Below are positions 39,613 through 58,816 of a DNA stretch of 64,000 bases, piece by piece. The number at the start of each line of letters is the position of its first letter. Position 1 is the stretch's first letter. Source of the stretch: a virus. The stretch spans positions 34,623-98,622 of IMG/VR virus record IMGVR_UViG_3300023174_000100; one strand, given 5' to 3'. Both the position numbers and the translations under genes were made by a program. The notes under the pieces are model-generated. The model was not told the origin of the DNA. It worked only from the letters and a program-made list of their open reading frames with translations, and made no database searches.

Positions 39613-39621
39613 TATTTTGTT

Positions 39622-39834: not shown

Positions 39835-39837
39835 AAA

Positions 39838-39882: not shown

Positions 39883-39891
39883 TAAAAAAAA

Positions 39892-40309: not shown

Positions 40310-40564
40310 ATGGAAAATCCATTTTATGTGGTTTTGGCTAAATTCCCTGGAGCCAATAAACAAAAGTATGTTGTTGAGGTCATCGTTAAATTTTACGATG
40401 ATGAGAATTGCAAAACTATTGGGTATTTGCAACACCCAGAAAGAAAAGAAGACGTAAAAGTCTTTGAAAATTTCTCTGAAATTGCAAAAAGATTTCTCCT
40501 TATGGAAGGGAAATGGAGAAAATGTACAAAAAGAGAGTTGAAAATGCTGAACTCAAAAAATTAA
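40310..40564 (+). CDS. Cassette hypothetical protein
   Basis: Promoter and leader essentially identical to those of 40971. Confidence 0.7.
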   Translation: MENPFYVVLAKFPGANKQKYVVEVIVKFYDDENCKTIGYLQHPERKEDVKVFENFSEIAKRFLLMEGKWRKCTKRELKMLNSKN

Positions 40565-40620
40565 TCGAAAGCCCCGCGGTGACAGAGCGGGGCTATTTTT
40601 AACCACTTAAACAAAAAATT

Positions 40621-40746
40621 ATGAGCCACGAAGAGTTTTTAAGAACCTTAGTAACCGAGGAGTTACTTGATGACTATGAGGCGGACCTCTTAGTATGTGA
40701 ATTAATTGAGGGACAAGAGGAAGAGGACGAAGAGGAAGAAGAGTAG
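40621..40746 (+). CDS. 41-aa very acidic peptide
   Basis: MSHEEFLRTLVTEELLDDYEADLLVCELIEGQEEEDEEEEE; leader motif. Confidence 0.65.
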   Translation: MSHEEFLRTLVTEELLDDYEADLLVCELIEGQEEEDEEEEE

Positions 40747-40970
40747 AACGGAAGCCTCCGGACGGAAACGGACGGAGGCTCTCTCTTATTCAATGGAACG
40801 TAGCTAGAGAGGGCTAGCGTATTTCAATTGGGCTGACTAACAGGAAGCCCGAGTAATTTTTTTGCGGATCAAATATGATGCTTTTGGTAAAATAATTGCC
40901 AAAATATTAGGAATATAGCTTAACTGGTTGTATCTTCGAGTCATAATTAATTACTTAAACTTTTTCACTT

Positions 40971-41255
40971 ATGAGGAATTCTGTTTTTTTTAATTTACCT
41001 TATTATCTTGAGGTTGAAGGCAAAAGCGCCCTATTTACTGAATGCGTATATAACGGCATTCACATTATCGAGAATGATGGAGTATTTATTTCTCAAATTT
41101 TGGCAAACCGCCAAAAATGGATGAAAGCCACAAAAAGATTCGATGTTGCTGAAAGACGTTACCTCGCACACCCGGATCGTTTTCACAAGGACTGGCCTAT
41201 ATTCATTACCTCTGTAGAGGATAAACAAGTATTTGTCCTAAACCTTAACAAGTAA
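40971..41255 (+). CDS. Cassette hypothetical protein
   Basis: Promoter and leader. Confidence 0.7.
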   Translation: MRNSVFFNLPYYLEVEGKSALFTECVYNGIHIIENDGVFISQILANRQKWMKATKRFDVAERRYLAHPDRFHKDWPIFITSVEDKQVFVLNLNK

Positions 41256-41315
41256 ATCTAACAAGCCCCGCGGTGACAGAGCGGGGCTATTTTTAACCAC
41301 TTAAATCTAAACAAA

Positions 41316-41459
41316 ATGACATTCACAAATTTTGAAGAGTTCCTAGGCATAAACCTAGACTTAGGAATCTTAGAGCAATGGTCAAACGACCTAGAGTTAA
41401 ACGAACTCCTATCAGAGATTGAGGACGAAATAGAAGAAGACGAAGAGGAAGAAGAGTAG
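41316..41459 (+). CDS. 47-aa very acidic peptide
   Basis: MTFTNFEEFLGINLDLGILEQWSNDLELNELLSEIEDEIEEDEEEEE; leader motif. Confidence 0.65.
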   Translation: MTFTNFEEFLGINLDLGILEQWSNDLELNELLSEIEDEIEEDEEEEE

Positions 41460-41706
41460 AACGGAAGCCTCCGGACGGAAACGGACGGAGGCTCTCTCTT
41501 ATTCAATGGAACGTAGCCGGAGAGGTCTAGCGTATTTCAATTGGGCTGACTAACAGGAAGCCCGAGTAATTTTTTTGCGGATCAAATATGGTGTTTTTAG
41601 CAAAATAATTAGGTAAAAGTTATGATTATACAGTTTTGCGTCGTATATTTGTAGGGCAATCGCAAGGAAGCGAGAGCAATTATGTATCACTTATAAAACA
41701 AACAAA

Positions 41707-41952
41707 ATGAGTAAGAGATTTCAAGTTAGCTACACGGGTAATGATCTACAGTTTAAGGGGTGTAAATCTATTGAATACGCCGAAACAAAGGCGGATGCAA
41801 TTTTATCGGTTTTTAAGCGTTGGCTTAATCATGATTACTTTCCTCAAGAAGATGGAAGTATTTTTGACTCATCTAATAACCTGCTTTACTCAAGAGGTGA
41901 TGATGTTATTTATTATGATGGTGGATATTTTATTGCCGAAGAGTTAGATTAG
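41707..41952 (+). CDS. Cassette hypothetical protein (copy 1)
   Basis: Identical to 42873-43118. Confidence 0.75.
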   Translation: MSKRFQVSYTGNDLQFKGCKSIEYAETKADAILSVFKRWLNHDYFPQEDGSIFDSSNNLLYSRGDDVIYYDGGYFIAEELD

Positions 41953-42007
41953 TCACCTTATAAGGCAGCCCCTAGCTGCCCTACTTTTTTAAAACACTCA
42001 AACAGAA

Positions 42008-42040
42008 AGCCCCGGACCGGAAACGGTTCGGGGTTTTTTT
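42008..42040 (+). terminator. Cassette terminator (related copies at 42636, 43174, 44831)
   Basis: CCCCGGACCGGAAACGGTTCGGGG plus T run. Confidence 0.85.
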
Positions 42041-42222
42041 ATGCCCAAACGGAAGCGAACGGAAGCGAACGAATTTTGCTAGGGCTGACTAACAGGAAGC
42101 CCGAGTAAATTTTTTGCGGATCAAATATCGTATTTTTAGCAAAATAATTGCCAAAATATTAGGAATATATAGTTTTATGTTGTATTTTTGAGTCATTGTT
42201 AATCACTTAAATATTTTCCGTT

Positions 42223-42627
42223 ATGAAAATCACATTTGAAATTTCTCAATCAATTGCAGACCTATTAGAGTATTGCCAATCTGACAAATACTCTGATTTT
42301 GAAATGGCACACGATGAAAATGGCGTGCCTTACAGAAACAAAGCTAGAATGGTAGACTTAGAGTTTACCAACTCTTATGCGGAGATAATCTGGAAAGAGG
42401 GCTACATGCTAATCTACACGGCGTGGAGCCAGTTCACCTACGAAATTGAGGAAAGAGACGGTAAAACATACTGCACCTATAATGGCGCGGTTAAGGGGTT
42501 CCTAAAGCAGGCTTTAATCCCTCACATTACCCCAGCTCCAGGTATTAACATTCATGATTGCATGTGCCACTCCTCTACTCACGGTACACTTCTATTCGAA
42601 GAATACTTACTCGCTAGAGGATTATAA
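42223..42627 (+). CDS. Cassette hypothetical protein
   Basis: Promoter, leader and terminator. Confidence 0.75.
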   Translation: MKITFEISQSIADLLEYCQSDKYSDFEMAHDENGVPYRNKARMVDLEFTNSYAEIIWKEGYMLIYTAWSQFTYEIEERDGKTYCTYNGAVKGFLKQALIPHITPAPGINIHDCMCHSSTHGTLLFEEYLLARGL

Positions 42628-42872
42628 TTGAAACTACCCCGGACCGGAAACGGTCCGGGGTTTTTTTATGCCCAAACGGAACCGAACGGAAGCGAACGAA
42701 TTTTGCTAGGGCTGACTAACAGGAAGCCCGAGTAATTTTTTTGCGGATCAAATATGGTGTTTTTAGCAAAATAATTAGGTAAAAGTTATGATTATACAGT
42801 TTTGCGTCGTATATTTGTAGGGCAATCGCAAGGAAGCGAGAGCAATTATGTATCACTTATAAAACAAACAAA

Positions 42873-43118
42873 ATGAGTAAGAGATTTCAAGTTAGCTACA
42901 CGGGTAATGATCTACAGTTTAAGGGGTGTAAATCTATTGAATACGCCGAAACAAAGGCGGATGCAATTTTATCGGTTTTTAAGCGTTGGCTTAATCATGA
43001 TTACTTTCCTCAAGAAGATGGAAGTATTTTTGACTCATCTAATAACCTGCTTTACTCAAGAGGTGATGATGTTATTTATTATGATGGTGGATATTTTATT
43101 GCCGAAGAGTTAGATTAG
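42873..43118 (+). CDS. Cassette hypothetical protein (copy 2)
   Basis: Identical to 41707-41952. Confidence 0.75.
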   Translation: MSKRFQVSYTGNDLQFKGCKSIEYAETKADAILSVFKRWLNHDYFPQEDGSIFDSSNNLLYSRGDDVIYYDGGYFIAEELD

Positions 43119-43388
43119 TCACCTTATAAGGCAGCCCCTAGCTGCCCTACTTTTTTAAAACACTCAAACAGAAAGCCCCGGACCGGAAACGGTTCGGGGT
43201 TTTTTTATGCCCAAACGGAAGCGAACGGAAGCGAACGAATTTTGCTAGGGCTGACTAACAGGAAGCCCGAGTAAATTTTTTGCGGATCAAATATCGTATT
43301 TTTAGCAAAATAATTGCCAAAATATTAGGAATATATAGTTTTATGTTGTATTTTTGAGTCATTGTTAATCACTTAAATTTTTACTACT

Positions 43389-43634
43389 ATGTCATCATTA
43401 ATTGTAAGTCAAGTATTGACTAATTTAATCATTTCAACAATGGTTGAACAAAAGTACTTTGGTTCTAAAAAATCACAGGAAAAGTACTTAGAATCTATGT
43501 TAAAAATAAGAGAGGGATTTTACAGATTAAAAGGTAATTTTCCAAATGAAGTTGAAAACATTGATGTACAGTCAACAGAAAGGCTATTGAACACGGCTGT
43601 AGAATTTATTCAGGATTGCTTAAAAGAAGCCTAA
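43389..43634 (+). CDS. Cassette hypothetical protein
   Basis: Promoter and leader. Confidence 0.7.
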   Translation: MSSLIVSQVLTNLIISTMVEQKYFGSKKSQEKYLESMLKIREGFYRLKGNFPNEVENIDVQSTERLLNTAVEFIQDCLKEA

Positions 43635-43692
43635 AAACAACAGCCCCGCGGTGACAGAGCGGGGCTATTTTTAACCACTTAAACAAAAAATT

Positions 43693-43824
43693 ATGTCAAA
43701 AACTCAAAAAATCCTAATAGACATCAAAAATAATTATATAGAAATTATTTGCATGTCTTTTTATGTAGGAATGTTATTAATGATTTTGTTAGTAATCATA
43801 GGCACTATAATCAAAAACATTTAG
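43693..43824 (+). CDS. 43-aa membrane peptide
   Basis: Same leader as 40621; one TM segment. Confidence 0.55.
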   Translation: MSKTQKILIDIKNNYIEIICMSFYVGMLLMILLVIIGTIIKNI

Positions 43825-43914
43825 AACGGACGAACCCCGGCTTAGAACGGTCGGGGTTCATCTTATCATTAGAACGCATTACATTTTATCATATCACATT
43901 TCAAACACATTAAC

Positions 43915-44184
43915 ATGAATAGTCTATCATCTCTTTTGAATAATGATGCAATCCAATTTGGAACGCATGTAATGAGATTTTTATCCATTGATGCAGTTCC
44001 TCATGATTGGGCATTCTGGATTAAATTATTATTGGTTATCATTGTCATTAATAACATTTGGGATATATGTAAGGAATTATTAAACATTATAAGTAAAGAT
44101 GATAGGATTGATTTAAAATGTATATTCAATGATTTAGTTTGGATTTATATAGCATTAGTTTGCATGAAGTATTGGTTTTTATAG
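43915..44184 (+). CDS. Small membrane protein
   Basis: Two hydrophobic segments; lies in a compositionally skewed tract. Confidence 0.45.
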   Translation: MNSLSSLLNNDAIQFGTHVMRFLSIDAVPHDWAFWIKLLLVIIVINNIWDICKELLNIISKDDRIDLKCIFNDLVWIYIALVCMKYWFL

Positions 44185-44390
44185 ATGATGATAGATGTAG
44201 TTTACGGCTGGGATTGGTTTATGATTAATCCCCGCCAAATTTTGCTAGGGCTGACTAACAGAAAGCCCGAGTAATTTTTTTGCGGATCAAATATGGTGTT
44301 TTTAGCAAAATAATTAGGTAAAAGTTATGATTATATAGTTTTATGTTGTATTTTTGAGTCATTAATTAATCACTTAAATACTTTATCCTT

Positions 44391-44822
44391 ATGGAAAACA
44401 ATCAGAATTATGTGGCGACAATATTCAATGCCATGTTCCCAATTTTAAACACTGCTCAAGTCTATGTTGGATTTGGAGTTGGGCAGGAAGATACAAAATT
44501 GGCATTCTATGAAGCGTTCCGGAAATGCCAAAAAGAATTACAGGACGGTACAGAAATTTCAATTGGTCCTGAATTTTTTATCCAAGAATTCAAAAATTGG
44601 GCAAAGAAATCAGAAGAGATAATTTTTATGTCTTTGTTATCTTATCACCCCGAAAAGTTTTTCCCTCAACAAATAGATGCACTACCTGAAGAATCTGAGT
44701 TTTGGGAGGGGATGTACCAAAAGGAACAATGGGAACAGTTCGACGAATCTCAACACCCCTTATTCGATATATGGGTACAAGAAATGCAGGACGTCACTCA
44801 AGAAATGTGGCAAGAGTTCTAA
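44391..44822 (+). CDS. Cassette hypothetical acidic protein
   Basis: Promoter, leader and terminator. Confidence 0.75.
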   Translation: MENNQNYVATIFNAMFPILNTAQVYVGFGVGQEDTKLAFYEAFRKCQKELQDGTEISIGPEFFIQEFKNWAKKSEEIIFMSLLSYHPEKFFPQQIDALPEESEFWEGMYQKEQWEQFDESQHPLFDIWVQEMQDVTQEMWQEF

Positions 44823-45052
44823 AACCAAACAGCCCCGGCCGAAAACGACCGGGGTTTTTTTATGCCCAAACGGAAGCGAACGGAAGCGAACGAATTTTGC
44901 TAGGGCTGACTAACAGGAAGCCCGAGCAAATTTTTTGCGGATCAATTTTAAAAAATATTGAAATTTATTTGCTAAAAGTTATGAAATATAAAAATCTTGT
45001 TGTATATTTGTAATGCAATCGCAATGAAGCGAGAGCATTAAAAAACAAAGTT

Positions 45053-45352
45053 ATGAAAAATTTAGAAAGTGTTGCAGTTGAATTAAAAGAGGTATTGGCT
45101 GCAAAATCAATTTTAGAAGCAAGGGAAAAAACGCTTCGCGCTGAAATCATTGAAGGTTTACAGTCCCAAAACTTAACTCTATTAAAAGTAGGTGGTTTTA
45201 CGGTATCGATTCGTAAAAATAAAGTTTGGACATATTCAAAATGGGTTCGTACCTTAGAAAAAATGCTCAAAACGCGCAAAGATAACGAACAAAAAAACGG
45301 TATCGCTACATTCGAGGAAAATCCAACATGGCAATTCCTAAGCGCAAAGTAA
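45053..45352 (+). CDS. Coiled-coil hypothetical protein, paralog of 61130-61459
   Basis: Shared K..W/YTYSK.....E..LK.....E...G.AT motif. Confidence 0.7.
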   Translation: MKNLESVAVELKEVLAAKSILEAREKTLRAEIIEGLQSQNLTLLKVGGFTVSIRKNKVWTYSKWVRTLEKMLKTRKDNEQKNGIATFEENPTWQFLSAK

Positions 45353-45417
45353 ACCAAAAAGGGTAGGCGAAAGCCTACCCTACTTTAACAAATTTTTAAC
45401 ACTTTAAATTATATATC

Positions 45418-45654
45418 ATGTTAGGCAAATTAATAATCATTAGCATTTATGTTTATGTATGCGTTCCACAGTCAAACGGAGGCAAAACGGAGTACTTAGA
45501 AAAAGTAGGTACGCGGTCATGGGAGATGCCTGGAACGTTCACCAAAACGGATTCTTTGATTAAAGAAACGGTTAAGTACTATGGAATTGACCTTGAGTAT
45601 AACAGTATCAAAGTCGACTTAAATACACTACGCATAAAATGTGAGTGCAACTAA
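45418..45654 (+). CDS. Hypothetical protein
   Basis: Leader; hydrophobic N-terminus. Confidence 0.55.
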   Translation: MLGKLIIISIYVYVCVPQSNGGKTEYLEKVGTRSWEMPGTFTKTDSLIKETVKYYGIDLEYNSIKVDLNTLRIKCECN

Positions 45655-45865
45655 GGAAACTTAAGGACCCTTGTCAGAGCGAATTTCGCTCCGGCAAGGC
45701 TCCGCCTTGCCTGAGTAAATTTTTGCAGCGGCGGATCTTAACATTTCTTTAACTAAAATAGCAAAAATATTAACACTTATTAACTACTACTTATTACTTT
45801 TTTGTTTATCTTTGTAATGCAATCAAAAGCAATTAATTAATCACTTAAACGTAAAAACAAGTACC

Positions 45866-46063
45866 ATGAAAAGCACCATTTTAGAATCGAACGGTATCAG
45901 AATCATTTTCTCAGCTTCTGTACTAGGAAAAAAAGTTAGAGTAACCCAGAACGGTAGGGACATAGATACCGTGGTGAACTTTGCTTCCTTCAAGAGGTGG
46001 GCTAAGGATGTTCTAACAGAAGGTCAGCTAAGAGTCGCAAAGTCTCAATACAACCGATTGTAG
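45866..46063 (+). CDS. Cassette hypothetical protein
   Basis: TATCTTTG promoter and leader. Confidence 0.7.
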   Translation: MKSTILESNGIRIIFSASVLGKKVRVTQNGRDIDTVVNFASFKRWAKDVLTEGQLRVAKSQYNRL

Positions 46064-46338
46064 AACGGAAATTCGGGGTTGAGTTACGGCTCAACCCCTC
46101 AAATAATAGCTACCTATAAATCCTGGATTTTGTCCGAATCAATCCGCTAGCGAATTTCGCTCCGGCAAGGCTCCGCCTTGCCTGAGTAAATTTTTGCAGG
46201 GGCGGATTTTAACATTTCTTTAACTAAAATAGCGAAAATATTAACACTTATTAACTACTACTTATTATTAAAATTTAAAAAATAGTATTATCTTTGTAAT
46301 GCAGTCGCAATGAAGCGAAGGCGTTAAATAAACAAGTT

Positions 46339-46515
46339 ATGTACCTATTCATTTTAATTTTCTTTTTAGGCTGTTGGTTTCCGATTAGTTTATACGCTAT
46401 GATTTTAAATAGCGAAGCCGACGGCGATACAGTAAAACAGACGTTAACAAAATTTTTTATTGGTTCGTCCTTATGGATATTGCTAATTGTATTATTTGCA
46501 GTACTGATAATTTAA
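46339..46515 (+). CDS. 58-aa two-TM protein
   Basis: Not in the ORF track; TATCTTTG promoter, AAACAAGTTATG start. Confidence 0.55.
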   Translation: MYLFILIFFLGCWFPISLYAMILNSEADGDTVKQTLTKFFIGSSLWILLIVLFAVLII

Positions 46516-46601
46516 CAAAACGTTAACACCGAGGGTATTGCATAATACATTCAATACCCTTATCTTTGCTTTATAATTTTTAAACCACAAAAAACTTAAA
46601 A

Positions 46602-46838
46602 ATGGTTACTTTAAAAGAAAAAAAAGGCGCTTTAAAAACTCTTCAATCGGCTATTAAAAAGGCAATTTCAGAAAACGGTAATTTAGATTTTACCGATTTT
46701 ATAGATGTAGCCTATGAATTGGATAACGAAATTAATAGGTTTGAAAACCAATTTAAAATACAAAAGCCCATAAGGCCGATACCTGTTGGAAACGGACCTT
46801 CAAAGGGACAACCTGGGATATATCTTTTAGCTCACTAA
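46602..46838 (+). CDS. Cassette hypothetical protein
   Basis: Type C promoter. Confidence 0.7.
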   Translation: MVTLKEKKGALKTLQSAIKKAISENGNLDFTDFIDVAYELDNEINRFENQFKIQKPIRPIPVGNGPSKGQPGIYLLAH

Positions 46839-47073
46839 TAAATAAAGAAACCCACCAAACGGAACGGTTTGGTGGGCATTCTTATGCTAGCGAATTTCGC
46901 TCAGGCAAAGCGGAGCCTTGCCTGAGTAAATTTTTGCAGGGGCGGATTTTAACATTTCTTTAACTAAAATAGGGAAAACATTAACACTTTTTTAACTAAA
47001 CCTATTATTAAAATTTAAAAAATAGTATTATCTTTGTAATGCAATTAATTAATCACTTAAACAAAAACAGGTT

Positions 47074-47793
47074 ATGAAAATTTTAGGTTTTAATTTTATT
47101 TTAGGTCAAACGGTACATTCTATAGACCTTAAATTATCCGCTACAAAAAAACTTGGTGGTCGTTTTGTTGTACAAACGTATCACTATGATTTGCAGCAAG
47201 TTATAAACAATGACTTTACTCAAGATAAAGAAAATTGTTTAGATTGTCCTTTTAGCTACAATAAAAATAACGGTAAAAGCGGGGGCTGTTATACGCATAA
47301 AGGTAATATGCTAAAAGGATTAAAATCTAAATTACGCTCTCTTAATAGAAAGTATAAATTAGGTTTATTAGCTACAGATTATAGCGACGTACTGCCTTTA
47401 TTAAACAAATATTTAGATAAATTGACTGCCAAAAATATAAATATTTCATTAGTACGGTTCGGTTCTTATGGTGAGGCGGTTACCCTGCCTTTAGACCTGT
47501 TAGACGGTTTATCTAAATTAGCAAAGCGTAAAACGGGTTATACGCACCAATGGAACAAACCGGAATTTAAGGAATACGCTAAATTATTAATGGCTTCGAC
47601 GCACAATATTTTTGAGGCAAAAATAGCCAATGATTTAGGTTTCAGGACATTCAATGTAGGTCTTTTAGAAAACAGTATTATGTGTCCGTCATCACCTACT
47701 ATAGAAAAGGATAAAAGGGTATCTTGCGCCAATTGTGGACTTTGTGCGGGAAATTCAATCAAAGCAAAGGATATTTATATTCCTAAACACTAA
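47074..47793 (+). CDS. Cys-rich putative Fe-S protein (Gp88-related), paralog of 51817
   Basis: CxDC...GGCY, R.G.YGE, GYTHQW, MAST, CP...CxxCGLC. Confidence 0.65.
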   Translation: MKILGFNFILGQTVHSIDLKLSATKKLGGRFVVQTYHYDLQQVINNDFTQDKENCLDCPFSYNKNNGKSGGCYTHKGNMLKGLKSKLRSLNRKYKLGLLATDYSDVLPLLNKYLDKLTAKNINISLVRFGSYGEAVTLPLDLLDGLSKLAKRKTGYTHQWNKPEFKEYAKLLMASTHNIFEAKIANDLGFRTFNVGLLENSIMCPSSPTIEKDKRVSCANCGLCAGNSIKAKDIYIPKH

Positions 47794-47875
47794 AAAATAT
47801 AGGGGAATGTTTGGATATTTCAAATATTCCCCTTATATTTGCAACATATTATTAATCACTTAAAATTATAAAGTT

Positions 47876-48106
47876 ATGGCAATCAACAGTAGGATATCTG
47901 CAAGCTCTCAAAACGACATAAACGAAGAGCTTATAATACTTGCAAAAGAAACGGTATCAGAACTTAAGGACTTCGACGGGTTCAACGGTATATCAAAAAA
48001 GGACTTAGAAAAATTTGTAAATTACATACTAACAATTTACGACGAAGACCCAAGCGACGACCAAATTTTTAATAACGGTAGATGCGAAGGAGGCATAAAC
48101 TACTAA
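47876..48106 (+). CDS. Cassette hypothetical protein
   Basis: Promoter and leader. Confidence 0.65.
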   Translation: MAINSRISASSQNDINEELIILAKETVSELKDFDGFNGISKKDLEKFVNYILTIYDEDPSDDQIFNNGRCEGGINY

Positions 48107-48127
48107 AAATATAATAACTTGTTTTTT

Positions 48128-48163
48128 AGCCCCGTCGGATTTAGTGTCCGTCGGGGATTTTTC
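48128..48163 (+). terminator. Terminator (near-identical copy at 49905)
   Basis: CCCCGTCGGA-TTTAGTG-TCCGTCGGGG plus T run. Confidence 0.7.
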
Positions 48164-48341
48164 ATGCCAGTGAATTTCGCTCAGGCAGGGCTTTGCCCTG
48201 CCTGAGTAAATTTTTGCAGGGGCGGATCTTAACATTTCTTTAACTAAAATAGGGAAAACATTAACATTCTCTTAACTACTAGGTATTGATTTTACCCTTA
48301 TCTTTGTATCATAATTTTAAACCACTTAATAAACAAGTCTT

Positions 48342-48836
48342 ATGAGTATTCTAAATTTCATCGAGGGCTTATCGCCTAGAAACACTTTTGCTGCTATCCA
48401 GTATGAGTCATCAGCAGAAAAGGTAGCAAAAAAGCTAACTTATGGTTGGTTGGCTGCTAATGGTATTTCTCGCGAAGAAGTGCGCTGCATTACTTTTCGT
48501 ACCTGCCAATTGGGTAGCACCTACAAAAAAAGATTAGAGAATAGAGAGGGCGAGGAAGTTGTAGTAAATCCAGGTTGGGCTAGAGCTTTGGATAACAAAG
48601 GTCATTTATTCGACAATCCAAAGAACCTAAAGAAATTTCTACGCATTTTCTTAATTCCAGGAAAACAAGTTAGATGGGGTTTTCCAGACGCAACAACAGA
48701 ACGGAATCGGTTAGCATTAGTTAAAAGAATGCAAGAAATAGAACCAGAAACGGAATCTAATGAGTTTGAATTGAGAATGATTGAGGTTGACTGCATTCAG
48801 AATCTAAAAGCAAAAGAAGTTTTTCAATTAGCGTAA
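48342..48836 (+). CDS. Cassette hypothetical protein
   Basis: Promoter and leader. Confidence 0.75.
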   Translation: MSILNFIEGLSPRNTFAAIQYESSAEKVAKKLTYGWLAANGISREEVRCITFRTCQLGSTYKKRLENREGEEVVVNPGWARALDNKGHLFDNPKNLKKFLRIFLIPGKQVRWGFPDATTERNRLALVKRMQEIEPETESNEFELRMIEVDCIQNLKAKEVFQLA

Positions 48837-48918
48837 AAAATGTGAGGGGAATGTTTGGAAATGTAAAATATTCCCCTTATCTTTGCCTTATATTAATCAC
48901 CACTTAAATAAAGTATCT

Positions 48919-49146
48919 ATGGGAACAAGACATAATTTTTATGGAATCTTAGATGATTCTATGAATGAATCACAATTAAGAGAGGAATTAAGCAAATGGA
49001 CAAGAGAAAGCTTAATTAGTTGGTTAAAATGGAATGACAGAAATGGAGTATATTATGATGAAGAAAGTATGTTAGAGTTTGGAAACATTCTCACGCATAA
49101 GGAAGCAATGGATATTATGATTAGTCAAATTATGGAAAACAGATAA
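48919..49146 (+). CDS. Hypothetical protein
   Basis: Start moved to the ATG after the CACCACTTAAA leader. Confidence 0.65.
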   Translation: MGTRHNFYGILDDSMNESQLREELSKWTRESLISWLKWNDRNGVYYDEESMLEFGNILTHKEAMDIMISQIMENR

Positions 49147-49188
49147 GTAGAATTTCAATATCTTAATCACCACTTAAATACTTAAAAA

Positions 49189-49581
49189 ATGAACAAAGAA
49201 GGTTTAAAAGTTTCGCTTACAAATGAATTGAGCGAAGAGATTTTTTTCAATGCTTTATGTAATTCATTGGATTATATGTGTAGTGGATATGGACTTGATT
49301 TAAAGTACAAACAATCTGACTACAATAATGCTAAGGCTAAATTGAGTAGTCCATGTTATGAAGATGTTTTAATGCAAATGTTAAGAGATGGAGTTAGAAT
49401 TGGATTGAAAGACCTTGAAGGTGGAATGGATACAGAATATATTACATTAGATACAGTACATGAAAGAGTTAAGAATGTTCCCTTAGACCATCTTTTAGAC
49501 ATGATAAATGATAATGATGATGCAGTTACTGGAGATGTTGTTTTACAGATTGTATTTTTAAATGAAATTATATATGGATAG
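49189..49581 (+). CDS. Hypothetical protein
   Basis: CACCACTTAAA leader. Confidence 0.75.
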   Translation: MNKEGLKVSLTNELSEEIFFNALCNSLDYMCSGYGLDLKYKQSDYNNAKAKLSSPCYEDVLMQMLRDGVRIGLKDLEGGMDTEYITLDTVHERVKNVPLDHLLDMINDNDDAVTGDVVLQIVFLNEIIYG

Positions 49582-49674
49582 GATTTAAAAAAGATGGGGG
49601 AATGTTTGGAAATGTAAATGTTCTCCCCATCTTTATATTATATTAATCCCCGCGAAAAACTTAAAAAAAGTAAA

Positions 49675-49884
49675 ATGAATAATAAACATATTTGGGAAGG
49701 TTGGACAGTTCAAGATTTTATAGATGAACTTGAGCCCACTTTTAATAGAATTATTAATAGTCATTCCTGGACAGCACCTTTTAAAAATGACAAAGAACTA
49801 AAGGAATGGCTTAAGGATAATCAACCGTATTACAAGAAAGATATCCCCGAAGTTTTTAATTATTTTAGAGCAAAGCTAAGGTAA
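49675..49884 (+). CDS. Hypothetical protein
   Basis: Start at MNNKHIWEGW after the promoter module. Confidence 0.65.
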   Translation: MNNKHIWEGWTVQDFIDELEPTFNRIINSHSWTAPFKNDKELKEWLKDNQPYYKKDIPEVFNYFRAKLR

Positions 49885-50212
49885 GAATACATGACTTGTT
49901 TTTTGCCCCGTCGGATTTAGTGTCCGTCGGGAATCTTCATGCCAGTGAATTTCGCTCAGGCAGGGCAAAGCCCTGCCTGAGTAATTTTTGCAGGACCAGG
50001 ATTTTAACATTTCCTTAACTAAAATAGGGAAAACATTAACACTCCCTTAACTACTAGGTATTGTTTTTATACTTATCTTTGTAGTGTTATAAAGAGAGAG
50101 GGTAATTAGAAAGGCAAAAAATAATTTAAAAAAAGTTTGCCTTAAATTTGGAAAATAGAAAATTACTCTTTATTTTTGCATCAGATTCTTAACCACTTTA
50201 AATTTTTAATGT

Positions 50213-50938
50213 ATGCTTTTCACAGAAGAAGTAAGCGCAAATCTAAGCGCAAAGTATGTAGCTATTAGCTCAAAGAAATTAATTAATGACCTTCAGTCTA
50301 ATGGTTTTGAGCTTTCGGGCTTTCAGACTAAAAAGAAAGGTGCTAAAAGTTCCGCGCACCTTATTAGAATGAGGTACAATAAGGAATTAATCTTAAATGG
50401 TGAAACCTTATATCCAGAGGTCGTTATCCGTAATTCTTTTGACGGAACGGTTGGGTTTGAATGTTCAATGGGGATATTTAGATTAGTATGCTCAAACGGA
50501 CTAACTGTATCGGATTCAAGATTTGAATCTAAGATTTTCAAAGTAAGGCATTTTGGAAAGAAGGCAATGGATATTTCAGAGAAAGTTATTTCAGGTGAGA
50601 TTGTAGCCAACTTTTTTGAATTGCTACCTAAACTCGAGGAATATGTATTGCAGCAAATGTCTGTAAACTTGACCGAAGAAAAGGCTATTGAATTCGCCAT
50701 GAAGGCTGCTGCTTTGCGTTTTAAGAGAGCCTTTACAGAAAATGAGGCTAAGGTATTACTTGCGTCAGAAAGGTTCGCAGATGATGAAAATACGCTTTGG
50801 GCAATTCAGAATCGCATTCAAGAAAAATTGATTAATGGGTTTGCAGGTAGAAGAAAATATTCTGCATTGAAAGACCCAAACAAGACTGCAATTATCAATG
50901 AGAGGTTAGCTAATCTTTCTATGGAGTTCGCAAATTAA
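50213..50938 (+). CDS. DUF932/DUF945-family protein
   Basis: NSFDG...G.FRLVCSNGL...RH. Confidence 0.8.
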   Translation: MLFTEEVSANLSAKYVAISSKKLINDLQSNGFELSGFQTKKKGAKSSAHLIRMRYNKELILNGETLYPEVVIRNSFDGTVGFECSMGIFRLVCSNGLTVSDSRFESKIFKVRHFGKKAMDISEKVISGEIVANFFELLPKLEEYVLQQMSVNLTEEKAIEFAMKAAALRFKRAFTENEAKVLLASERFADDENTLWAIQNRIQEKLINGFAGRRKYSALKDPNKTAIINERLANLSMEFAN

Positions 50939-51027
50939 TTTAAAAAAATGTGGGGGGAATGTTTGGAAATGTAAAATGTTCCTCCTATCTTTGTAAAATA
51001 TTAATCACCACTTTAAATTTTAAAATT

Positions 51028-51504
51028 ATGCACAATCTGCATTTAATTAGAACAAAAGCTGATTCTCATTCCGACGCTATTGGCATTGTTGAGGACTATC
51101 TATTTGATTGGGGTACAGAGAATAATTGGTTTACTATCATGGGTTCTCATTGCAAAGAAGACAAATCATTCTCTGAATCTTTTGATGAGAAATGGATAAC
51201 TAAGGATGAATTACTTAATGACCCAAATAGATTTAATTTTTTAACAGAGGTAAATGATTACTACAAGCAAGCATTCCTTAAGGTGTCTAATTTAGAGAAT
51301 ACTGAAATAGTTCATCCTTTTGATTGGAGATGTGCCGCTAATTATTGCAAAGAGCAATCTGAAATAGCAAGTCTTTCAGACCCTACTAAAGTTGATATAT
51401 GGTCAGATACTTTTTATGACGGAAGTATTGACGAACCTGGTATTTCTGAATTATACACTAATGGCAAATTTACTTTTGTTGTCTTAGTGAATATGCACTC
51501 GTAA
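51028..51504 (+). CDS. Hypothetical protein
   Basis: Start at MHNLHL after the leader. Confidence 0.7.
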   Translation: MHNLHLIRTKADSHSDAIGIVEDYLFDWGTENNWFTIMGSHCKEDKSFSESFDEKWITKDELLNDPNRFNFLTEVNDYYKQAFLKVSNLENTEIVHPFDWRCAANYCKEQSEIASLSDPTKVDIWSDTFYDGSIDEPGISELYTNGKFTFVVLVNMHS

Positions 51505-51816
51505 ATAAAAACCCTCCTGGTTAACTCCGGGAGGGTTTTTTCATGCCAGTGAATTTCGCTCGGGCAGGGCAAAGCCCTGCCCGAGTAATTTTTTGCAGGG
51601 GCGGATCTTAACATTTCCTTAACTAAAATAGGGAAAACATTAACACTCCCTTAACTACTAGGTATTGTTTTTATGCTTATCTTTGTGGTGTTGTTAAGAG
51701 AGAGAGTAATTAGAAAGGCAAAAAAATAATTTAAAAAAAGTTTGCCTTAAATTTGGAAAATAGAAAATTACTTTTTATTTTTGCATCAGATTATTAACCA
51801 CTTAAATACACAAGTT

Positions 51817-52524
51817 ATGCTTAAGCAAATTAATTTCAGATTAGGCGACGTTATCCACTGTATCGATATCAAGCCTAGTGCCACTCCGAAGCTCGCTAAA
51901 AAAGGCGAAATTATCTTACAAACTTATCATTTTTCTATTGACCAGATTAATGAAGGTAGCCTAAAAAATGACTCAAAGGTATGTTTTGATTGTAAGTTCT
52001 CTTATAATGCAAACGACGGAAAGTCAGGCGGTTGCTATACCCATGCGAACGGATCCCTAGCATGGGGATTGATTGCAAAATTAAAAGCCTTAAAAAAGCG
52101 TTTGGATAACGGATTAATTCCGGAAGGAGCTGAAGGCGTAATGGAACAAATTACGAGCGTTACAAAAAAGGTTAAAATATCCTTTGCTAGATTGGGAACG
52201 TATGGAGAGCCTACATTATTACCTTTTGAGTTGATAGAACAAATAAGGCCTTTGGTTGGTAAGGTTTCAGGCTATACTCACCAATGGCACAAACCAGAGA
52301 ATAAGCCTTATGCAAAATACTTAATGGCTAGTACGCATAATATCTTTGACGTAAAATTAGCCGAAGGCCTTGGATTCAGGTCTTACAATGCTAGTGAGGT
52401 TGAAGGTGCTATCCTTTGTCCATCAGCACCAACCATAGCAAAAGAAAAGCAAGTAAGCTGCGCTAAATGTGGATTGTGTGAAGGTGGAAAGAAAGCTAAG
52501 AATATTTACAATGTAATCCATTAA
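51817..52524 (+). CDS. Cys-rich putative Fe-S protein (Gp88-related), paralog of 47074
   Basis: CFDC...GGCY, RLGTYGEP, GYTHQW, CP...CAKCGLC. Confidence 0.65.
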   Translation: MLKQINFRLGDVIHCIDIKPSATPKLAKKGEIILQTYHFSIDQINEGSLKNDSKVCFDCKFSYNANDGKSGGCYTHANGSLAWGLIAKLKALKKRLDNGLIPEGAEGVMEQITSVTKKVKISFARLGTYGEPTLLPFELIEQIRPLVGKVSGYTHQWHKPENKPYAKYLMASTHNIFDVKLAEGLGFRSYNASEVEGAILCPSAPTIAKEKQVSCAKCGLCEGGKKAKNIYNVIH

Positions 52525-52610
52525 CATAACATTAACATAGGGGGGTATTTACTTTATCAAATATTCCCCCTACATTTGCATCAGATTATTAACCACTTAA
52601 ATTAAAAAAC

Positions 52611-53021
52611 ATGAAAAGGATTAAAGTTAGATTCTCTTTACAACGTGGAGAAAATTATATGAAATGGAGAGTGATTGGCAATAATGGAGTTGTCACATAT
52701 TACAATCCATGTGAAGTTCAATTAATCATGATGGGATGCACTTTAAAGAATAATAAGAAATTAGCTACTAAGATTTTTAATGGAGAAAGTACTAAGGTTG
52801 TATGTGCATGGATTTTATGTAATCATTTAGAGATTAGATATTCTGATTTTATTAAAGAGTCTGATTTTAAAATTAAGTACAATCCTAAAGTTGCTCCTAA
52901 TTGGACTTTTCTGGGGGAAGATATTGATAATAGGGATATTTCTCACATTGTTTCGGTTGACTATAAATTGTGTATTGATTCTATTCCTGACGGTATGGGA
53001 TTGGGGGAATATAAGAGTTAA
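52611..53021 (+). CDS. Hypothetical protein
   Basis: Promoter and leader. Confidence 0.7.
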   Translation: MKRIKVRFSLQRGENYMKWRVIGNNGVVTYYNPCEVQLIMMGCTLKNNKKLATKIFNGESTKVVCAWILCNHLEIRYSDFIKESDFKIKYNPKVAPNWTFLGEDIDNRDISHIVSVDYKLCIDSIPDGMGLGEYKS

Positions 53022-53126
53022 AAATCCCCGCGGAAAATTAACAAAACATTAACGATAAGGGTATTGCATAGTATATCCGATACCCTTATCTTTGCACTAT
53101 ATTTTAAACCACTAAATTTATTTATT

Positions 53127-53681
53127 ATGTTTGAACTAAAAGCCACCAAAGGCAATATTGATTTGTCTGTATTTAATTTGTCAACTTTGATTCAAGAGTC
53201 AAATCAGAATGTAAGAGATATAGACTCTCACAATCTAGAAGTTATTAAAAGATTCAAAGAACTTGTGCTTAGTTATTATGGTGAACTATCCAATGTTATG
53301 GATAAATTAGATTTACCTTATTTTGAAGTTAATGGTTACAACAATCTGTATGCTCATTTAGCTTGTGGAGGAGATTATGAAATCACTTTATATTCTAACG
53401 GGATTAGTGAATCTTTAATGTTTGGCCATGGTAGAGGATATATAAAAATCTATCTTGCCGCTCCTTTTGAAAGTTGTGGAAGAAAATTATCTTGCAATTT
53501 TACGGGAACTATTAGGATAGGCAAAAGATGGTTAGAGCATTCTTCTTATAAGGAATACCCCCTAGAATCTGTTTCTCAAATCATCGAACTAGGGCAAGAT
53601 GTAATCAAGCTCCATATCTTAGGTAGAGATATAAAGGACATCACAGAACTATTAATTCAAGAGAAAAAACTAATATACTAG
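53127..53681 (+). CDS. Hypothetical protein
   Basis: Start after the type C promoter. Confidence 0.7.
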   Translation: MFELKATKGNIDLSVFNLSTLIQESNQNVRDIDSHNLEVIKRFKELVLSYYGELSNVMDKLDLPYFEVNGYNNLYAHLACGGDYEITLYSNGISESLMFGHGRGYIKIYLAAPFESCGRKLSCNFTGTIRIGKRWLEHSSYKEYPLESVSQIIELGQDVIKLHILGRDIKDITELLIQEKKLIY

Positions 53682-53774
53682 TTTTAACAAAACATTAACG
53701 ATAAGGGTATTGCATAGTATATTCGATACCCTTATCTTTGCACTATAATTATTCACCACTTTAAATTTTAAATC

Positions 53775-54002
53775 ATGCAGCTAGACAATGAAATGTTAGA
53801 TAAGTTAGAATCTTGGTTTGAAACCTACAATCCTCATTGTATGATATACTCACCTTATATGGACGAAGAAGAAGAAGATAAAATGTTTGATGATTATAAT
53901 GAATTAATTGAATTATTGGAGAGAGCTAAAGCTGGCACTCTTACTAAAGATGATGAAGATGTAATAGCATTTCATATCGAGTGTATCGAAGAAGATTATT
54001 AA
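53775..54002 (+). CDS. Small acidic protein
   Basis: Type C promoter; E/D-rich. Confidence 0.7.
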   Translation: MQLDNEMLDKLESWFETYNPHCMIYSPYMDEEEEDKMFDDYNELIELLERAKAGTLTKDDEDVIAFHIECIEEDY

Positions 54003-54025
54003 TCACCACTTTAAATTATAAAATT

Positions 54026-54235
54026 ATGTTAGTAGAACTAAAAAATCTTACTAGAAAAGATTTAGTAATTACTTTAGAAGACTTACTTTCAGACGAGTTT
54101 GATTCATCAGAACTTGTGTACTTGACTGAAGAAGAACTTATTAGTGCTATAATTAATGCAGCTTTGTTTTATAAGAACGAGGCTAATTATATCCCATCTA
54201 GTGATGTATTTAATTCTTATGAAAAAAGGAAATAA
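54026..54235 (+). CDS. Small acidic protein
   Basis: CACCACTTTAAA leader. Confidence 0.65.
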   Translation: MLVELKNLTRKDLVITLEDLLSDEFDSSELVYLTEEELISAIINAALFYKNEANYIPSSDVFNSYEKRK

Positions 54236-54252
54236 TTAATAAGTAAATGATA

Positions 54253-54378
54253 AGTCAGGTGGCGGAAGGTAGACGCTAAAAAACTGTAATGAGGTTACGC
54301 TATCCTCACGTTAAATAAAAAAAGTATCAACGCGGTAGCGCGGTAGCCTTGCAGGTTCGAATCCTGCCCTGACTTCCA
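54253..54378 (+). ncRNA. tRNA-like RNA with unpaired anticodon region and a long extra arm
   Basis: AGTCAGG/CCTGACT acceptor plus TCCA, D-arm, GCAGG-TTCGAAT-CCTGC T-arm; CTGTAAT (Tyr-like) loop lacks a stem. Confidence 0.7.
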
Positions 54379-54402
54379 AAGGTTAATAAGTTTAAGTGGT
54401 TC

Positions 54403-54433
54403 GCTCCTGGCATTCTATGCCAGGAGTTTTTTT
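54403..54433 (+). terminator. Intrinsic terminator
   Basis: CTCCTGGCAT-TCT-ATGCCAGGAG plus T run. Confidence 0.85.
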
Positions 54434-54776
54434 GTTGCTAGTGAATTTCGCTCGGGCAAGGCAAAGCCTTGCCCGAGTAAATTTTCCAGGCCCCTCTTTC
54501 CAGCATGGCCAGTAATGTATGGGGATCCGGGTTTAACATTTTTTTAACATTTTCTTAGATCCTTTTAACATTTGAAATTAGGATAATAGGGAAATGGGGT
54601 GTATTTTTGCAATGTCAATTAGATGATAGGGAATAGATGAGATATAGTATGAGTTACATTTTACTGCATTTCATTTTAACATTTATTTAACATATATTTT
54701 TCATTCTATGATTATGATATTAGATAGAATGTTATTATCTTTGCGACATATTATTAACCATTTAAATTTTTAGATT

Positions 54777-55349
54777 ATGCCAAATTGGTGTTCAAATTGT
54801 ATCTCATTTGAAGGTACGGAAAAAGCTATGCAGACATTGAAAAAAGATGTTAGCATGATTAAGGATGGTCATTGCATGTTCACTGCATTGACGGACATTA
54901 AGAGTGAATGGAATTATGATGTATGGAATGCGGAGTTCGGTACTAAATGGAGTGTGATGATGGATGACGACATTAGGGATACAATGGAGCAACATGATTA
55001 TTTTAATTGTGAAACGGCTTGGAGTCCATGTATTGGATTTGTTCAAAAAGTATGTAAGAAGTACGGAGTAGAAGGACGGATTGAATATTCAGAGCCAGGG
55101 ATGGGCTTTGCAGGTATTATAGATATTGATGAAAATGGGGATGAATTGAGTATAGTTGAAATGTCTTATAGGGAATATCAATATAAGCATTTAGGTACTG
55201 ATGGTTTTTTTGAAGATTTTGTTATTGATGTTGAAGAGGGATTTATTGAAAGTGAAGAACAAATTAAGGAAGATTATTCTTATGTTGATGCTGAAGACAT
55301 GGAAGAAATGATTAGGATATATAGAGAGGGTAGCCCCGCGGAAAATTAA
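54777..55349 (+). CDS. DUF1281/YubB ferredoxin-like domain protein
   Basis: MPNWCSN, W...GTKW, ETAWSP, YSEPG. Confidence 0.75.
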   Translation: MPNWCSNCISFEGTEKAMQTLKKDVSMIKDGHCMFTALTDIKSEWNYDVWNAEFGTKWSVMMDDDIRDTMEQHDYFNCETAWSPCIGFVQKVCKKYGVEGRIEYSEPGMGFAGIIDIDENGDELSIVEMSYREYQYKHLGTDGFFEDFVIDVEEGFIESEEQIKEDYSYVDAEDMEEMIRIYREGSPAEN

Positions 55350-55434
55350 GAAATAATTAAAATAGGGGGGTATTGACTTTCTCAAATATCCCCCATATAT
55401 TTGCACTATATTATTCACCACATAAACTAAAAAA

Positions 55435-55923
55435 ATGAATAAGATTGAATTAAAGAGTGTTAAATTCTCTGAATGGAATTCACAAGAGACTTGTTGTTTC
55501 CAAGCAAATGTTTTCTTTAACGGAAAGAAAGTAGGGTACTGTAAAAATGATGGAATGGGGGGATATACCTACTGTTATTGTATAGGCGATAGAGAGTTGT
55601 ACGGCCAAATGGAGTCTTACTGTAAAACTCTTCCTGACAATGATAATTATGTAGGTAAGCCTAGCGTAGAGAATGTAGTAGATGAACTGTTCAATTCTTG
55701 GTTAAAAGACTATTATAAGAAAAAACGAGAAAAGGATTTTAGTAAGGGGTTATGTATTGGTACAGAAAACTTCTACAATTTGCTTGAAGTACTTGTAGGC
55801 GGTAAGCGTACAAAAATAGAAGACTTGTTAATGACTGAGCAAGGTTCTAATTACTTAAGAAACCTATGCAAGCAGAAGAGAGAAGAAGGTCTTAACATTC
55901 TAAATACCAACTTACCCTTTTAA
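55435..55923 (+). CDS. Hypothetical phage protein
   Basis: SQET.CF.A..NGKK.G..NDG.GG. Confidence 0.7.
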   Translation: MNKIELKSVKFSEWNSQETCCFQANVFFNGKKVGYCKNDGMGGYTYCYCIGDRELYGQMESYCKTLPDNDNYVGKPSVENVVDELFNSWLKDYYKKKREKDFSKGLCIGTENFYNLLEVLVGGKRTKIEDLLMTEQGSNYLRNLCKQKREEGLNILNTNLPF

Positions 55924-56007
55924 CAAAACATTAACGATAGGGGTATTGCATAGTATATCCGATACCCTTATCTTTGCACTATATTTATTCACCACTAAAC
56001 TAAAAAA

Positions 56008-56448
56008 ATGGACAACCAAAAAATTAAAATTGTTGATGGTTTTGTATGGTTATTGATTACCGACAAAGCTAAGGAAGTTTACCAGTCAGGTTTATTCGAT
56101 GGCTCTATCTACGCGCTATATGATGACGATGTAGAAACAGACTTTATAGAGACCTATGAAGAACTTATTGATGCATTAGAGAGAGGTCTTGAAATTGCAA
56201 TAGAAATCGGACGGTCTAGGAATACTGACGCAGTAGAAGATGCAAAAGAGGTATTGAGAGACCATGGTTACTTTGTTGATAACCTATGGCATATCCAGAA
56301 TGTTCAATTTAACTACATGGAGGCTAGCGATGAAGATGCTCAAAAGATTTTAAAAATGGCTCTTACCAACGAAGATATCACGGATCAAATCTCGTTAGCA
56401 ATTATTGATGCAATTGAGTTGTACTTCCAAGATGAGAACATCTTCTAG
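56008..56448 (+). CDS. Two-module fusion protein (A+B)
   Basis: N-half matches 56549; C-half matches 56816. Confidence 0.75.
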   Translation: MDNQKIKIVDGFVWLLITDKAKEVYQSGLFDGSIYALYDDDVETDFIETYEELIDALERGLEIAIEIGRSRNTDAVEDAKEVLRDHGYFVDNLWHIQNVQFNYMEASDEDAQKILKMALTNEDITDQISLAIIDAIELYFQDENIF

Positions 56449-56548
56449 GAATTCGGAGATTAACAAAACATTAACGATAGGGGTATTGCATAGTATATCC
56501 GATACCCTTATCTTTGCACTATATTTATTCACCACTAAACTAAAAAAA

Positions 56549-56788
56549 ATGGACAACCAAAAAATTAAAATTGTTGATGGTTTTGTATGGTTATTGATTA
56601 CCGATAAAGCTAAAGAAGTTTATCAGTCAGGTTTATTCGACGGCTCTATCTATGTACTAGATGACGACCTAAGCGAAGGACTATGCGAATCCTACGAAGA
56701 CCTTTTGAAAGCATTAGAGAATGGTTGTGACATAGCCTTAGAGGTTGGCTATATAACCGAAAGAGATGCTCGAATAATATTGTTTTGA
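56549..56788 (+). CDS. Module A stand-alone protein
   Basis: MDNQKIKIVDGFVWLL... start after the type C promoter. Confidence 0.7.
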   Translation: MDNQKIKIVDGFVWLLITDKAKEVYQSGLFDGSIYVLDDDLSEGLCESYEDLLKALENGCDIALEVGYITERDARIILF

Positions 56789-56815
56789 ATTAATCGCCAC
56801 TAAACTAAAAAAAAA

Positions 56816-57055
56816 ATGGACGCAGTAGAAGATGCAAAAAAGGTATTAAGAGACCATGGTTACTTTGTTGATAACCTATGGCACATTGAGGACGTACAAT
56901 CCTTACACAAGGGAGCAAGTGTGGAAGATGCTCATAGAATATTAAATGATGCTCTTACCAACGGAGCGACCATGGAGCAGATATGGTATTCAATTACCGA
57001 TGCTCTAGAAAATGAGGAAGGATATGTTCCCCTTTCCGACGAGGACGAAGATTAA
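56816..57055 (+). CDS. Module B stand-alone protein
   Basis: MDAVEDAKKVLRDHGYFVDNLWH. Confidence 0.7.
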   Translation: MDAVEDAKKVLRDHGYFVDNLWHIEDVQSLHKGASVEDAHRILNDALTNGATMEQIWYSITDALENEEGYVPLSDEDED

Positions 57056-57140
57056 CAAAACATTAACGATAAGGGTATTGCATAGTATATCCGATACCCT
57101 TATCTTTGCACTATATTTATTCACCACTAAACTAAAAAAA

Positions 57141-57434
57141 ATGAACATTGACAGAAGTTCTTATTTATTCAAGATTGTTTCCTATCATGTATCAAACATC
57201 TGTAATGAAATCATGAATGAGGACGATAAGACATCAGAAAAACTTGGAACAAAAGATGCTAAAGATGTCCTACTATTTACTCACATGATGGGTTCATTTG
57301 AGTCTATCATGGAAAATTTGGATGCATTGACATGTAAGATTGTAGAGAATGTTGACATGAATATTTTAGATGATTCCGATGAAGTATTGTATGACCATGT
57401 GTACACCGAATTTTTAAACAACTATAAAAAATAA
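57141..57434 (+). CDS. Hypothetical protein
   Basis: Start after the type C promoter. Confidence 0.65.
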   Translation: MNIDRSSYLFKIVSYHVSNICNEIMNEDDKTSEKLGTKDAKDVLLFTHMMGSFESIMENLDALTCKIVENVDMNILDDSDEVLYDHVYTEFLNNYKK

Positions 57435-57435
57435 T

Positions 57436-57636
57436 ATGAGAAATAATAAGGAATGGGTAGCTATCCTAAATGGCACAAGGATTGATTCTAATGGCTTTTA
57501 TTGTGGTGCCGCTTGTGTTACTGCCTACACTAAAAAAGAGGCCATACGATTGCTCTCTAAGGCTAAAATGCATTACTTCGGTACTTACAAGATTAGCAAG
57601 GAAGTTAGAAGGAATACAAACATCTACGCTAATTAA
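57436..57636 (+). CDS. Hypothetical protein
   Basis: Coupled ORF. Confidence 0.55.
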   Translation: MRNNKEWVAILNGTRIDSNGFYCGAACVTAYTKKEAIRLLSKAKMHYFGTYKISKEVRRNTNIYAN

Positions 57637-57718
57637 CAAAAAATTAACTATAGGGGTATTGTATAGTAGATCCGGTACCCCTATCTTTGTATCATATTAT
57701 TAACCACTAAACTAAAAG

Positions 57719-58643: not shown

Positions 58644-58653
58644 TAAATAAAAT

Positions 58654-58688
58654 GGTCGGGGCAGGTTCAAATCCTGTCCTGACTACCA
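58654..58688 (+). ncRNA. 35-nt tRNA minihelix (acceptor stem, T-arm, ACCA)
   Basis: GGTCGGG-GCAGG-TTCAAAT-CCTGT-CCTGACT-ACCA. Confidence 0.6.
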
Positions 58689-58742
58689 ACAGCTTAAATG
58701 TTGTGCAAGAGTACCCGTTCTCTGAAGATAAACAAAGGGGTT

Positions 58743-58815
58743 AGTCAGGTGGTGAAATTGGTAACACCTCAGGGGTAATAGCTTGATAATATAGGTTCAA
58801 ATCCTATTCTGACCA
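58743..58815 (+). ncRNA. tRNA-like cloverleaf with non-canonical anticodon loop
   Basis: AGTCAGG/TCTGACC acceptor, GGTG/CACC D-stem, TCAGG-GGTAATAG-CTTGA arm, ATAGG-TTCAAAT-CCTAT T-arm. Confidence 0.65.
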
Positions 58816-58816
58816 C

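Follow-up and report, generated by a model that had tools for sequence, protein, structure and literature searches.

Conserved transcript-end modules antisense to an early-gene leader tag as candidate small RNAs in phages of Flavobacteriia

C4 RNA (phages P1 and P7) and CI RNA (satellite phage P4) block expression by base-pairing with complementary sites that recur in transcripts of the phage that encodes them. Both P1 C4 and P4 CI are RNase P substrates (PMC5499578). The RNA that we propose for the first of two modules described below would resemble them in being a small phage RNA cut from a longer transcript. However, C4 and CI belong to temperate enterobacterial elements and serve an immunity operon through two sites, whereas the phages considered here are lytic-type Flavobacterium phages in which about 30 early mRNAs would be addressed through a common tag.

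Other comparisons concern position and target. 3'ETS-leuZ is the 3' external transcribed spacer of the glyW-cysT-leuZ tRNA operon and acts as an Hfq-aided sRNA sponge (bioRxiv 10.1101/2021.04.25.441314). Like it, and like enterobacterial 3'UTR-derived sRNAs, our candidates would be RNA pieces between the 3' end of a tRNA or ORF and an intrinsic terminator on the same transcript; unlike in 3'ETS-leuZ, the predicted partners are mRNA leaders and the upstream element is an anticodon-less tRNA look-alike. Only module 1 occupies the 3'ETS position, and what precedes it is tRNA-like and not a true tRNA; module 2 follows an ORF. Bacteroidota, to our knowledge, lack Hfq.

In T4, RegA is a translational repressor and RegB an endonuclease that cuts GGAG in early initiation regions (PMC3014915). 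The system proposed here would likewise shut off many early mRNAs post-transcriptionally through a short element of the initiation region, but RegA and RegB are proteins that act on Shine-Dalgarno (SD)-type or A/U-rich sites, whereas here the effector would be an RNA, the tag is phage-specific and the host is SD-blind. T4 band C and band D are cited in a passage of PMC4933390 as sRNAs of unknown function. Neither they, nor T5 RNA1 and RNA2, nor the AGTCAGG family of tRNA-like RNAs introduced below is known to have been linked to a downstream antisense seed. We also considered PAK_P3 sRNA1/2 as a precedent and rejected it, as shared leaders are not their targets.

The stretch of DNA that we analyzed (64,000 nucleotides, hereafter the window) comprises bases 34623-98622 of a 98.6-kb contig from an uncultured virus, the contig being about 56% complete. 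The nearest cultured phage is Flavobacterium phage immuto, whose host is Flavobacterium sp. LMO8, with a DNA polymerase 47% identical to that of the window contig. Given this affinity, and given that promoters in the window carry the Bacteroidota -7 box TAnnTTTG, the host is most likely a member of the Flavobacteriia. Flavobacteriia ribosomes do not use SD pairing (PMC7797042, PMC6847099), and initiation in F. johnsoniae is promoted by A residues, above all A-12 and A-13 (PMC6847099).

The early genes of the window are arranged as cassettes whose leaders share a short motif, which we call the tag:

37890-57715, + strand: early-gene cassette array; 5' leaders with an A-type or a C-type tag
Leaders of the array, + strand: A-type tag, AAYCACTTAAA; C-type tag, CACCACTTAAA and variants
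38370, 39602, 39870, 40601, 41295, 42201, 43367, 43673, 44368, + strand: strict tag copies, first part
45839, 47051, 47854, 48898, 49168, 51796, 52591, 54756, + strand: strict tag copies, rest (the list is not exhaustive)

The first-pass annotation had described such a motif as common to about 30 cassette genes between 37.9 and 57.7 kb, and the counts bear this out: AACCACTTAAA, at no more than one mismatch, gave 25 matches versus 3.1 expected, a number reached in 0 of 100 shuffles. The leader copies of the tag all lie on the + strand, from 38.3 to 54.8 kb, with degenerate versions up to 57.7 kb; over the full 98.6 kb of the contig, AAYCACTTAAA was counted 14 times in the forward and once in the reverse orientation. 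The end of the tag is 9-12 nt from the ATG, with a single exception at 16 nt. Seventeen copies sit 10-14 nt downstream of a -7 box; seven lack a promoter and are preceded by a terminator or a stop codon, yet stand at the usual distance from the ATG. Judging by these seven copies, the tag is part of the translation initiation region of the mRNA, tied to the ATG rather than to the promoter. The AAA at its 3' end occupies positions -14 to -10, the zone in which A promotes initiation in F. johnsoniae. When the frame AA..A.TTAAA is held fixed, the three free positions across 19 leaders are C or U only, so that each can still pair with G; the earlier statement that C-to-T leader variants still pair through G-U holds. 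This is exactly the variation that a G-containing pairing partner would be expected to tolerate, and recent cassette duplication combined with a transition bias could also contribute to it.

Within the array lies a tRNA-like RNA, followed by the first of two elements antisense to the tag:

54253-54378, + strand: tRNA-like RNA of the AGTCAGG / tRNA-Leu-chassis family; encoded CCA at 54376-54378
54379-54402, + strand: single-stranded trailer of module 1 (24 unpaired nt), after the encoded CCA
54390-54401, + strand: seed 1, exact antisense of the A-type leader 12-mers at 40601 and 43673
54403-54434, + strand: intrinsic terminator of module 1 (11-bp stem at 54403-54427, then 7 U)

This is the arrangement that had been noted before, namely a trailer and terminator at 54379-54433 directly after the tRNA-like CCA, with 54390-54401 as the exact complement of the two leader 12-mers. 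The observation that no minus-strand ATG follows was also accurate: the next one is 193 nt away, and we therefore rejected a minus-strand gene over module 1. A TTG-initiated minus-strand frame of 21 codons was rejected as well, as it would traverse a hypervariable insert. As a separate observation, the trailer contains a second conserved block, GGTTAATA at 54381-54388, complementary to the TATTAACC part of many leaders; because this block is 5' of the seed, the two cannot pair contiguously with one leader.

The tRNA-like RNA has intact acceptor, D and T arms, and its anticodon arm is replaced by an unrelated insert. ARAGORN makes no tRNA call on 54253-54378, and with the Rfam tRNA model RF00005 (cmscan) a score of 31 bits is reached only if 50 nt are passed over at the place of the anticodon arm. 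Of the canonical tRNA features, the 7-bp acceptor stem, the T arm with a TTCGAAT-type loop and the 3' CCA are present, and the 5-bp anticodon stem with its 7-nt loop is absent. When the window and the locus were scanned against all 4227 Rfam families, only this weak tRNA match was found here, and there was no sequence or Rfam similarity to C4 or CI. With its constant 5' AGTCAGG, Leu-type D arm, constant T arm, CCTGACT-N-CCA end and unrelated insert of variable length, the RNA instead shares the constant acceptor/D/T frame and variable insert of the AGTCAGG / tRNA-Leu-chassis family. We found 56 distinct members of this family in 33 viral contigs and 0 matches in 185,579 cellular genomes, making it phage-only. 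The trailers of about 50 other members show no antisense relation to repeated motifs, and we rejected the idea that an anti-leader trailer is a general property of the family.

To follow module 1 through its relatives, we used 17 sequences, consisting of five viral contigs (neighboring protein 61-85% identical) and 12 metagenome contigs. The cultured-phage DNA database held no nucleotide match to the module 1 locus, and L047, L048 and L183 were dropped as unrelated lineages or chance matches. Seed conservation had been proposed beforehand as a check, and seed 1 proved invariant at 12 of 12 positions and syntenic in all 17; a 2-nt indel and substitutions abut it on both sides, with none inside. 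The module 1 terminator is paired in 100% of cells and includes one compensatory pair, C-G to U-A, and the T arm is 100% paired with one compensatory pair among 14 sequences. Within the clade of the window the leader tag is as invariant as seed 1.

The tRNA-like insert beside seed 1 (54278-54346 in the window; compared in L042-L046 and L176-L188) takes at least six unrelated forms at this locus, 10-34% identical and 12-67 nt long, between near-identical flanks, and one form (L045, L181, L182) has a Val-like anticodon arm. On the other side, the intergenic region 54434-54776 is better conserved (78-90%) than the flanking genes. It contains a second hairpin, of a repeated family with other members at 48179, 49954 and 51558, as well as TTAACAT repeats and two tandem -7-box promoters (54602, 54736), the former with a 4-codon ORF downstream.

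The first-pass annotation had proposed a single "master" RNA at this locus. There are at least two modules, since a scan for + strand antisense copies found another, ending in G instead of U:

60113-60138, + strand: unpaired region of module 2, directly 3' of the epimerase-like ORF 59117-60112 (stop codon 60110-60112)
60121-60132, + strand: seed 2, starting 9 nt past the stop; exact antisense of a C-type leader 12-mer
60139-60180, + strand: terminator-like hairpin of module 2 (9-bp outer stem, 60139-60147 with 60167-60175; UUUU at 60177-60180)

Module 2 and its conservation go beyond what had been observed before. It is present in every relative whose sequence reaches that far, and its hairpin is 100% paired with two compensatory pairs. 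The 98.6-kb contig contains exactly two same-strand antisense copies, and so does each of the five relatives among the viral contigs, where the two lie 4.9-6.9 kb apart in the same orientation. Dinucleotide shuffles of the contig gave two or more copies with a probability of 0.007, before any constraint on hairpin position. In L043 (12385-12545) module 2 forms a tandem duplicate with an identical 11-nt seed core; the seed of the extra copy ends in A, and its hairpin has diverged, with one mismatch. The epimerase-like gene upstream of module 2 has no leader tag.

Ahead of the epimerase-like gene, tRNA-related pieces stand in a row on one transcript (58653-59105):

58654-58688: 35-nt acceptor/T-arm minihelix, ending in ACCA
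58743-58816: tRNA with an 8-nt anticodon loop
About 59060-59105: tRNA 3' half

The stretch of about 240 nt between the 8-nt-loop tRNA and the tRNA 3' half has no Rfam match. The minihelix trailer (58691-58712) contains TTAAATGTT, which is antisense to the AACATTTAA / TTAACAT repeats that precede many cassette promoters. This promoter-upstream 8-mer occurs 19 times versus about 8 expected, and the TTAAATGTT antisense could be due to chance in A/T-rich DNA.

We compared the capacity of the two seeds to pair with start sites, computing all energies in silico. At -12 kcal/mol or better, 35 of 48 start sites in the early region pair with either seed, versus 8 of 160 elsewhere, and shuffled seeds gave 2-4.5. 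Seed 1, with its U end, pairs better with AAYCAC leaders, and seed 2, with its G end, pairs better with CACCAC leaders. The predicted unpaired fraction of seed 1 is 84% for the trailer on its own and 67% with the tRNA-like part attached; in the whole operon transcript its unpaired probability is 0.13, with predicted pairing to two upstream leaders. The locus thus has two features generally expected of a base-pairing sRNA, namely a predicted accessible seed followed by a terminator hairpin and U-run, and a seed that is conserved and covaries with its targets, in this case between lineages.

The evidence for this covariation comes from immuto and two further contigs (L200 and L201). Neither AMCCACTWWAA nor a tRNA-like 3' end was found in immuto, which has an early array of its own:

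NC_055915.1 67600-73900 (L198): immuto early cassette array, 11-15 cassettes, with GTTG at -33, TAtaTTTA as the -7 box and a common leader

The immuto leader tag differs from that of the window, occurring 11 times as a full 20-mer and 15 times as a 14-nt core. An antisense 14-mer lies at 72098-72111, directly after the gp135 stop and 8 nt ahead of a terminator-like hairpin, in the unannotated gap 72097-72223; such a 14-mer appeared anywhere on that strand in 5 of 150 shuffles. In L201, whose gp135 is 41% identical, the tag is as in immuto, and two tandem antisense modules follow the gp135 homolog, one with an A-to-G change in the seed through which pairing is kept by G-U. In immuto and L201 the element is antisense to the ATCAATAATTAAAA stretch of the respective leader tag. 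In L200 (57% identity) the tag is shorter by three bases, and the antisense element, followed by a hairpin, misses the same bases. In all three the antisense element lies between a stop codon and a hairpin, and the tag has its A-run at about -15 to -12. We found no homolog of immuto gp135 in the window, so the module is not bound to one protein gene. Since module 2 and the modules of the immuto type come after protein genes, the tRNA 3' processing that had been suggested is not a feature of the design in general.

Three tag types, each with a matching antisense element at the same transcript position, amount on sequence comparison to covariation of seed and tag between lineages, the U/G seed variants being counted along with them. 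Since seed and tag are both invariant inside each clade, covariation is visible only between lineages, and the expectation that it would be seen in relatives was borne out at that level and not within the clade. The earlier proposal of an RNA carrying the leader-tag antisense in a host that does not use SD pairing therefore gains strong comparative support from the invariant seed, the second module, the duplicate and the three other contigs, although not in its form of one master RNA. The architecture of the modules, their conservation and the structural and seed-tag covariation are direct observations. The property under selection is very probably RNA-RNA pairing of transcript 3'-end modules with early leaders.

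Such pairing could act in cis only, with the 3'-end anti-leader binding tags on its own transcript and thereby autoregulating or protecting that operon, or silencing read-through into the next cassette. This would agree with the two upstream leaders that seed 1 is predicted to engage in the full operon transcript, and with immuto, L200 and L201, where the module is carried on the mRNA of a gene that has the tag. However, in the window the leaders on the modules' own transcripts are imperfect matches (CACCACTTTAA, AACCACTAAAC) and the perfect ones lie on other transcripts, the gene ahead of module 2 lacks a tag, and the tandem duplicates, which multiply the module as a unit with its own terminator, are hard to explain; we regard cis action alone as unlikely. 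For these reasons, and because each seed has its own preferred leader class, the evidence is most simply read as a small RNA that acts in trans. Several points nevertheless count against action in trans. Because both modules lie in early-type transcripts, a timing mechanism must be assumed; about 30 mRNA species would face two sRNA genes; seed 1 has low predicted accessibility in the full primary transcript; the immuto module, on a tag-bearing mRNA, possibly acts in cis; and other trailers of the tRNA-like family lack an antisense relation.

The remaining explanations do without regulatory pairing between module and leader. That the trailer is a processing and termination module only, its complementarity to the tag being incidental, for example as the relic of an inverted cassette junction, appears quite improbable to us. 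The whole 400-nt intergenic region is 78-90% conserved and has further invariant runs of 10-14 nt near seed 1, which speaks for this reading, but the shuffles make chance unlikely, and a relic leaves unexplained the second module with a different hairpin and the same seed, the tandem duplicate, and the tag-antisense pairs of three other contigs. The tag could instead be bound as double-stranded DNA by a protein of the phage or the host, with the inverted copies as extra binding sites; its constant spacing of 10-14 nt to the -7 box, typical of an operator, and its TTAA-N4-TTAA-like symmetry would fit. A DNA site would not need to keep the ATG spacing in seven promoter-less copies, to vary between C and U only, or to place every inverted copy just ahead of a hairpin and U-run in a transcript, and we consider it slightly less probable again. 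Finally, the tag might pair with host rRNA as a translational enhancer, the modules mimicking and competing with an rRNA segment; we take its resemblance to the T7 gene 10 epsilon enhancer (UUAACUUUA), likewise A/U-rich, to speak for this. Yet the best match shared by tag and rRNA is a 9-mer, AAGTGGTTA, near 16S position 660 in 7 of 80 Bacteroidota rrn loci (L056-L135), within a helix rather than at the 3' end, and phages that are related, and probably alike in host type, have different tags. The possibility is very remote, and with just this helix-internal 9-mer from 80 loci we rejected rRNA as the reader of the tag.

We consider it slightly better than an even chance that 54379-54433 is one of two conserved anti-leader modules that give rise to trans-acting sRNAs lowering early-gene translation. 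Discrete RNA expression, action in trans and repression are what we infer here from sequence. Each module would present the tag antisense within about 12-25 unstructured nt, followed by a stable terminator hairpin and U-run. For module 1, the tRNA-like element would recruit host tRNA-processing enzymes to give the RNA a defined 5' end, and because the CCA is encoded, an endonucleolytic cut after it must be assumed; the module 2 RNA would correspond to the 3' UTR of the protein gene ahead of it. With rising abundance, the small RNAs would pair at about -22 to -10 on some 30 early mRNAs, seed 1 serving AAYCAC leaders and seed 2 CACCAC leaders, with C/U variants absorbed by G-U pairs. This would cover the A-tract at about -14 to -11, used by the SD-blind ribosomes of Flavobacteriia, so that the 30S subunit would be blocked and early translation would drop, and the early mRNAs would probably decay once paired. 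Repression by A-tract masking is the most likely outcome of pairing, with activation and stabilization as alternatives.

More broadly, and with confidence a little short of even, we suggest that Flavobacteriia phages of several genera combine a lineage-specific tag at the 5' end of early mRNAs with co-evolving anti-tag sRNAs at transcript 3' ends, and that the two together, through RNA alone, globally shut down or time the early regulon. Since immuto, a cultured phage, shares the design, the idea is directly testable at the bench, and a tag/anti-tag pair could serve as an orthogonal translation control part for Bacteroidota. If true, the widespread anticodon-less tRNA look-alikes would, in the copy of one clade, have a first concrete job, that of setting the 5' end of an adjacent small RNA. 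Virulent phages would then possess a regulon-wide, RNA-based temporal switch, in which every early mRNA bears one short tag and a matching small RNA reads it, and this would show a way in which phages of SD-blind Bacteroidota control translation.
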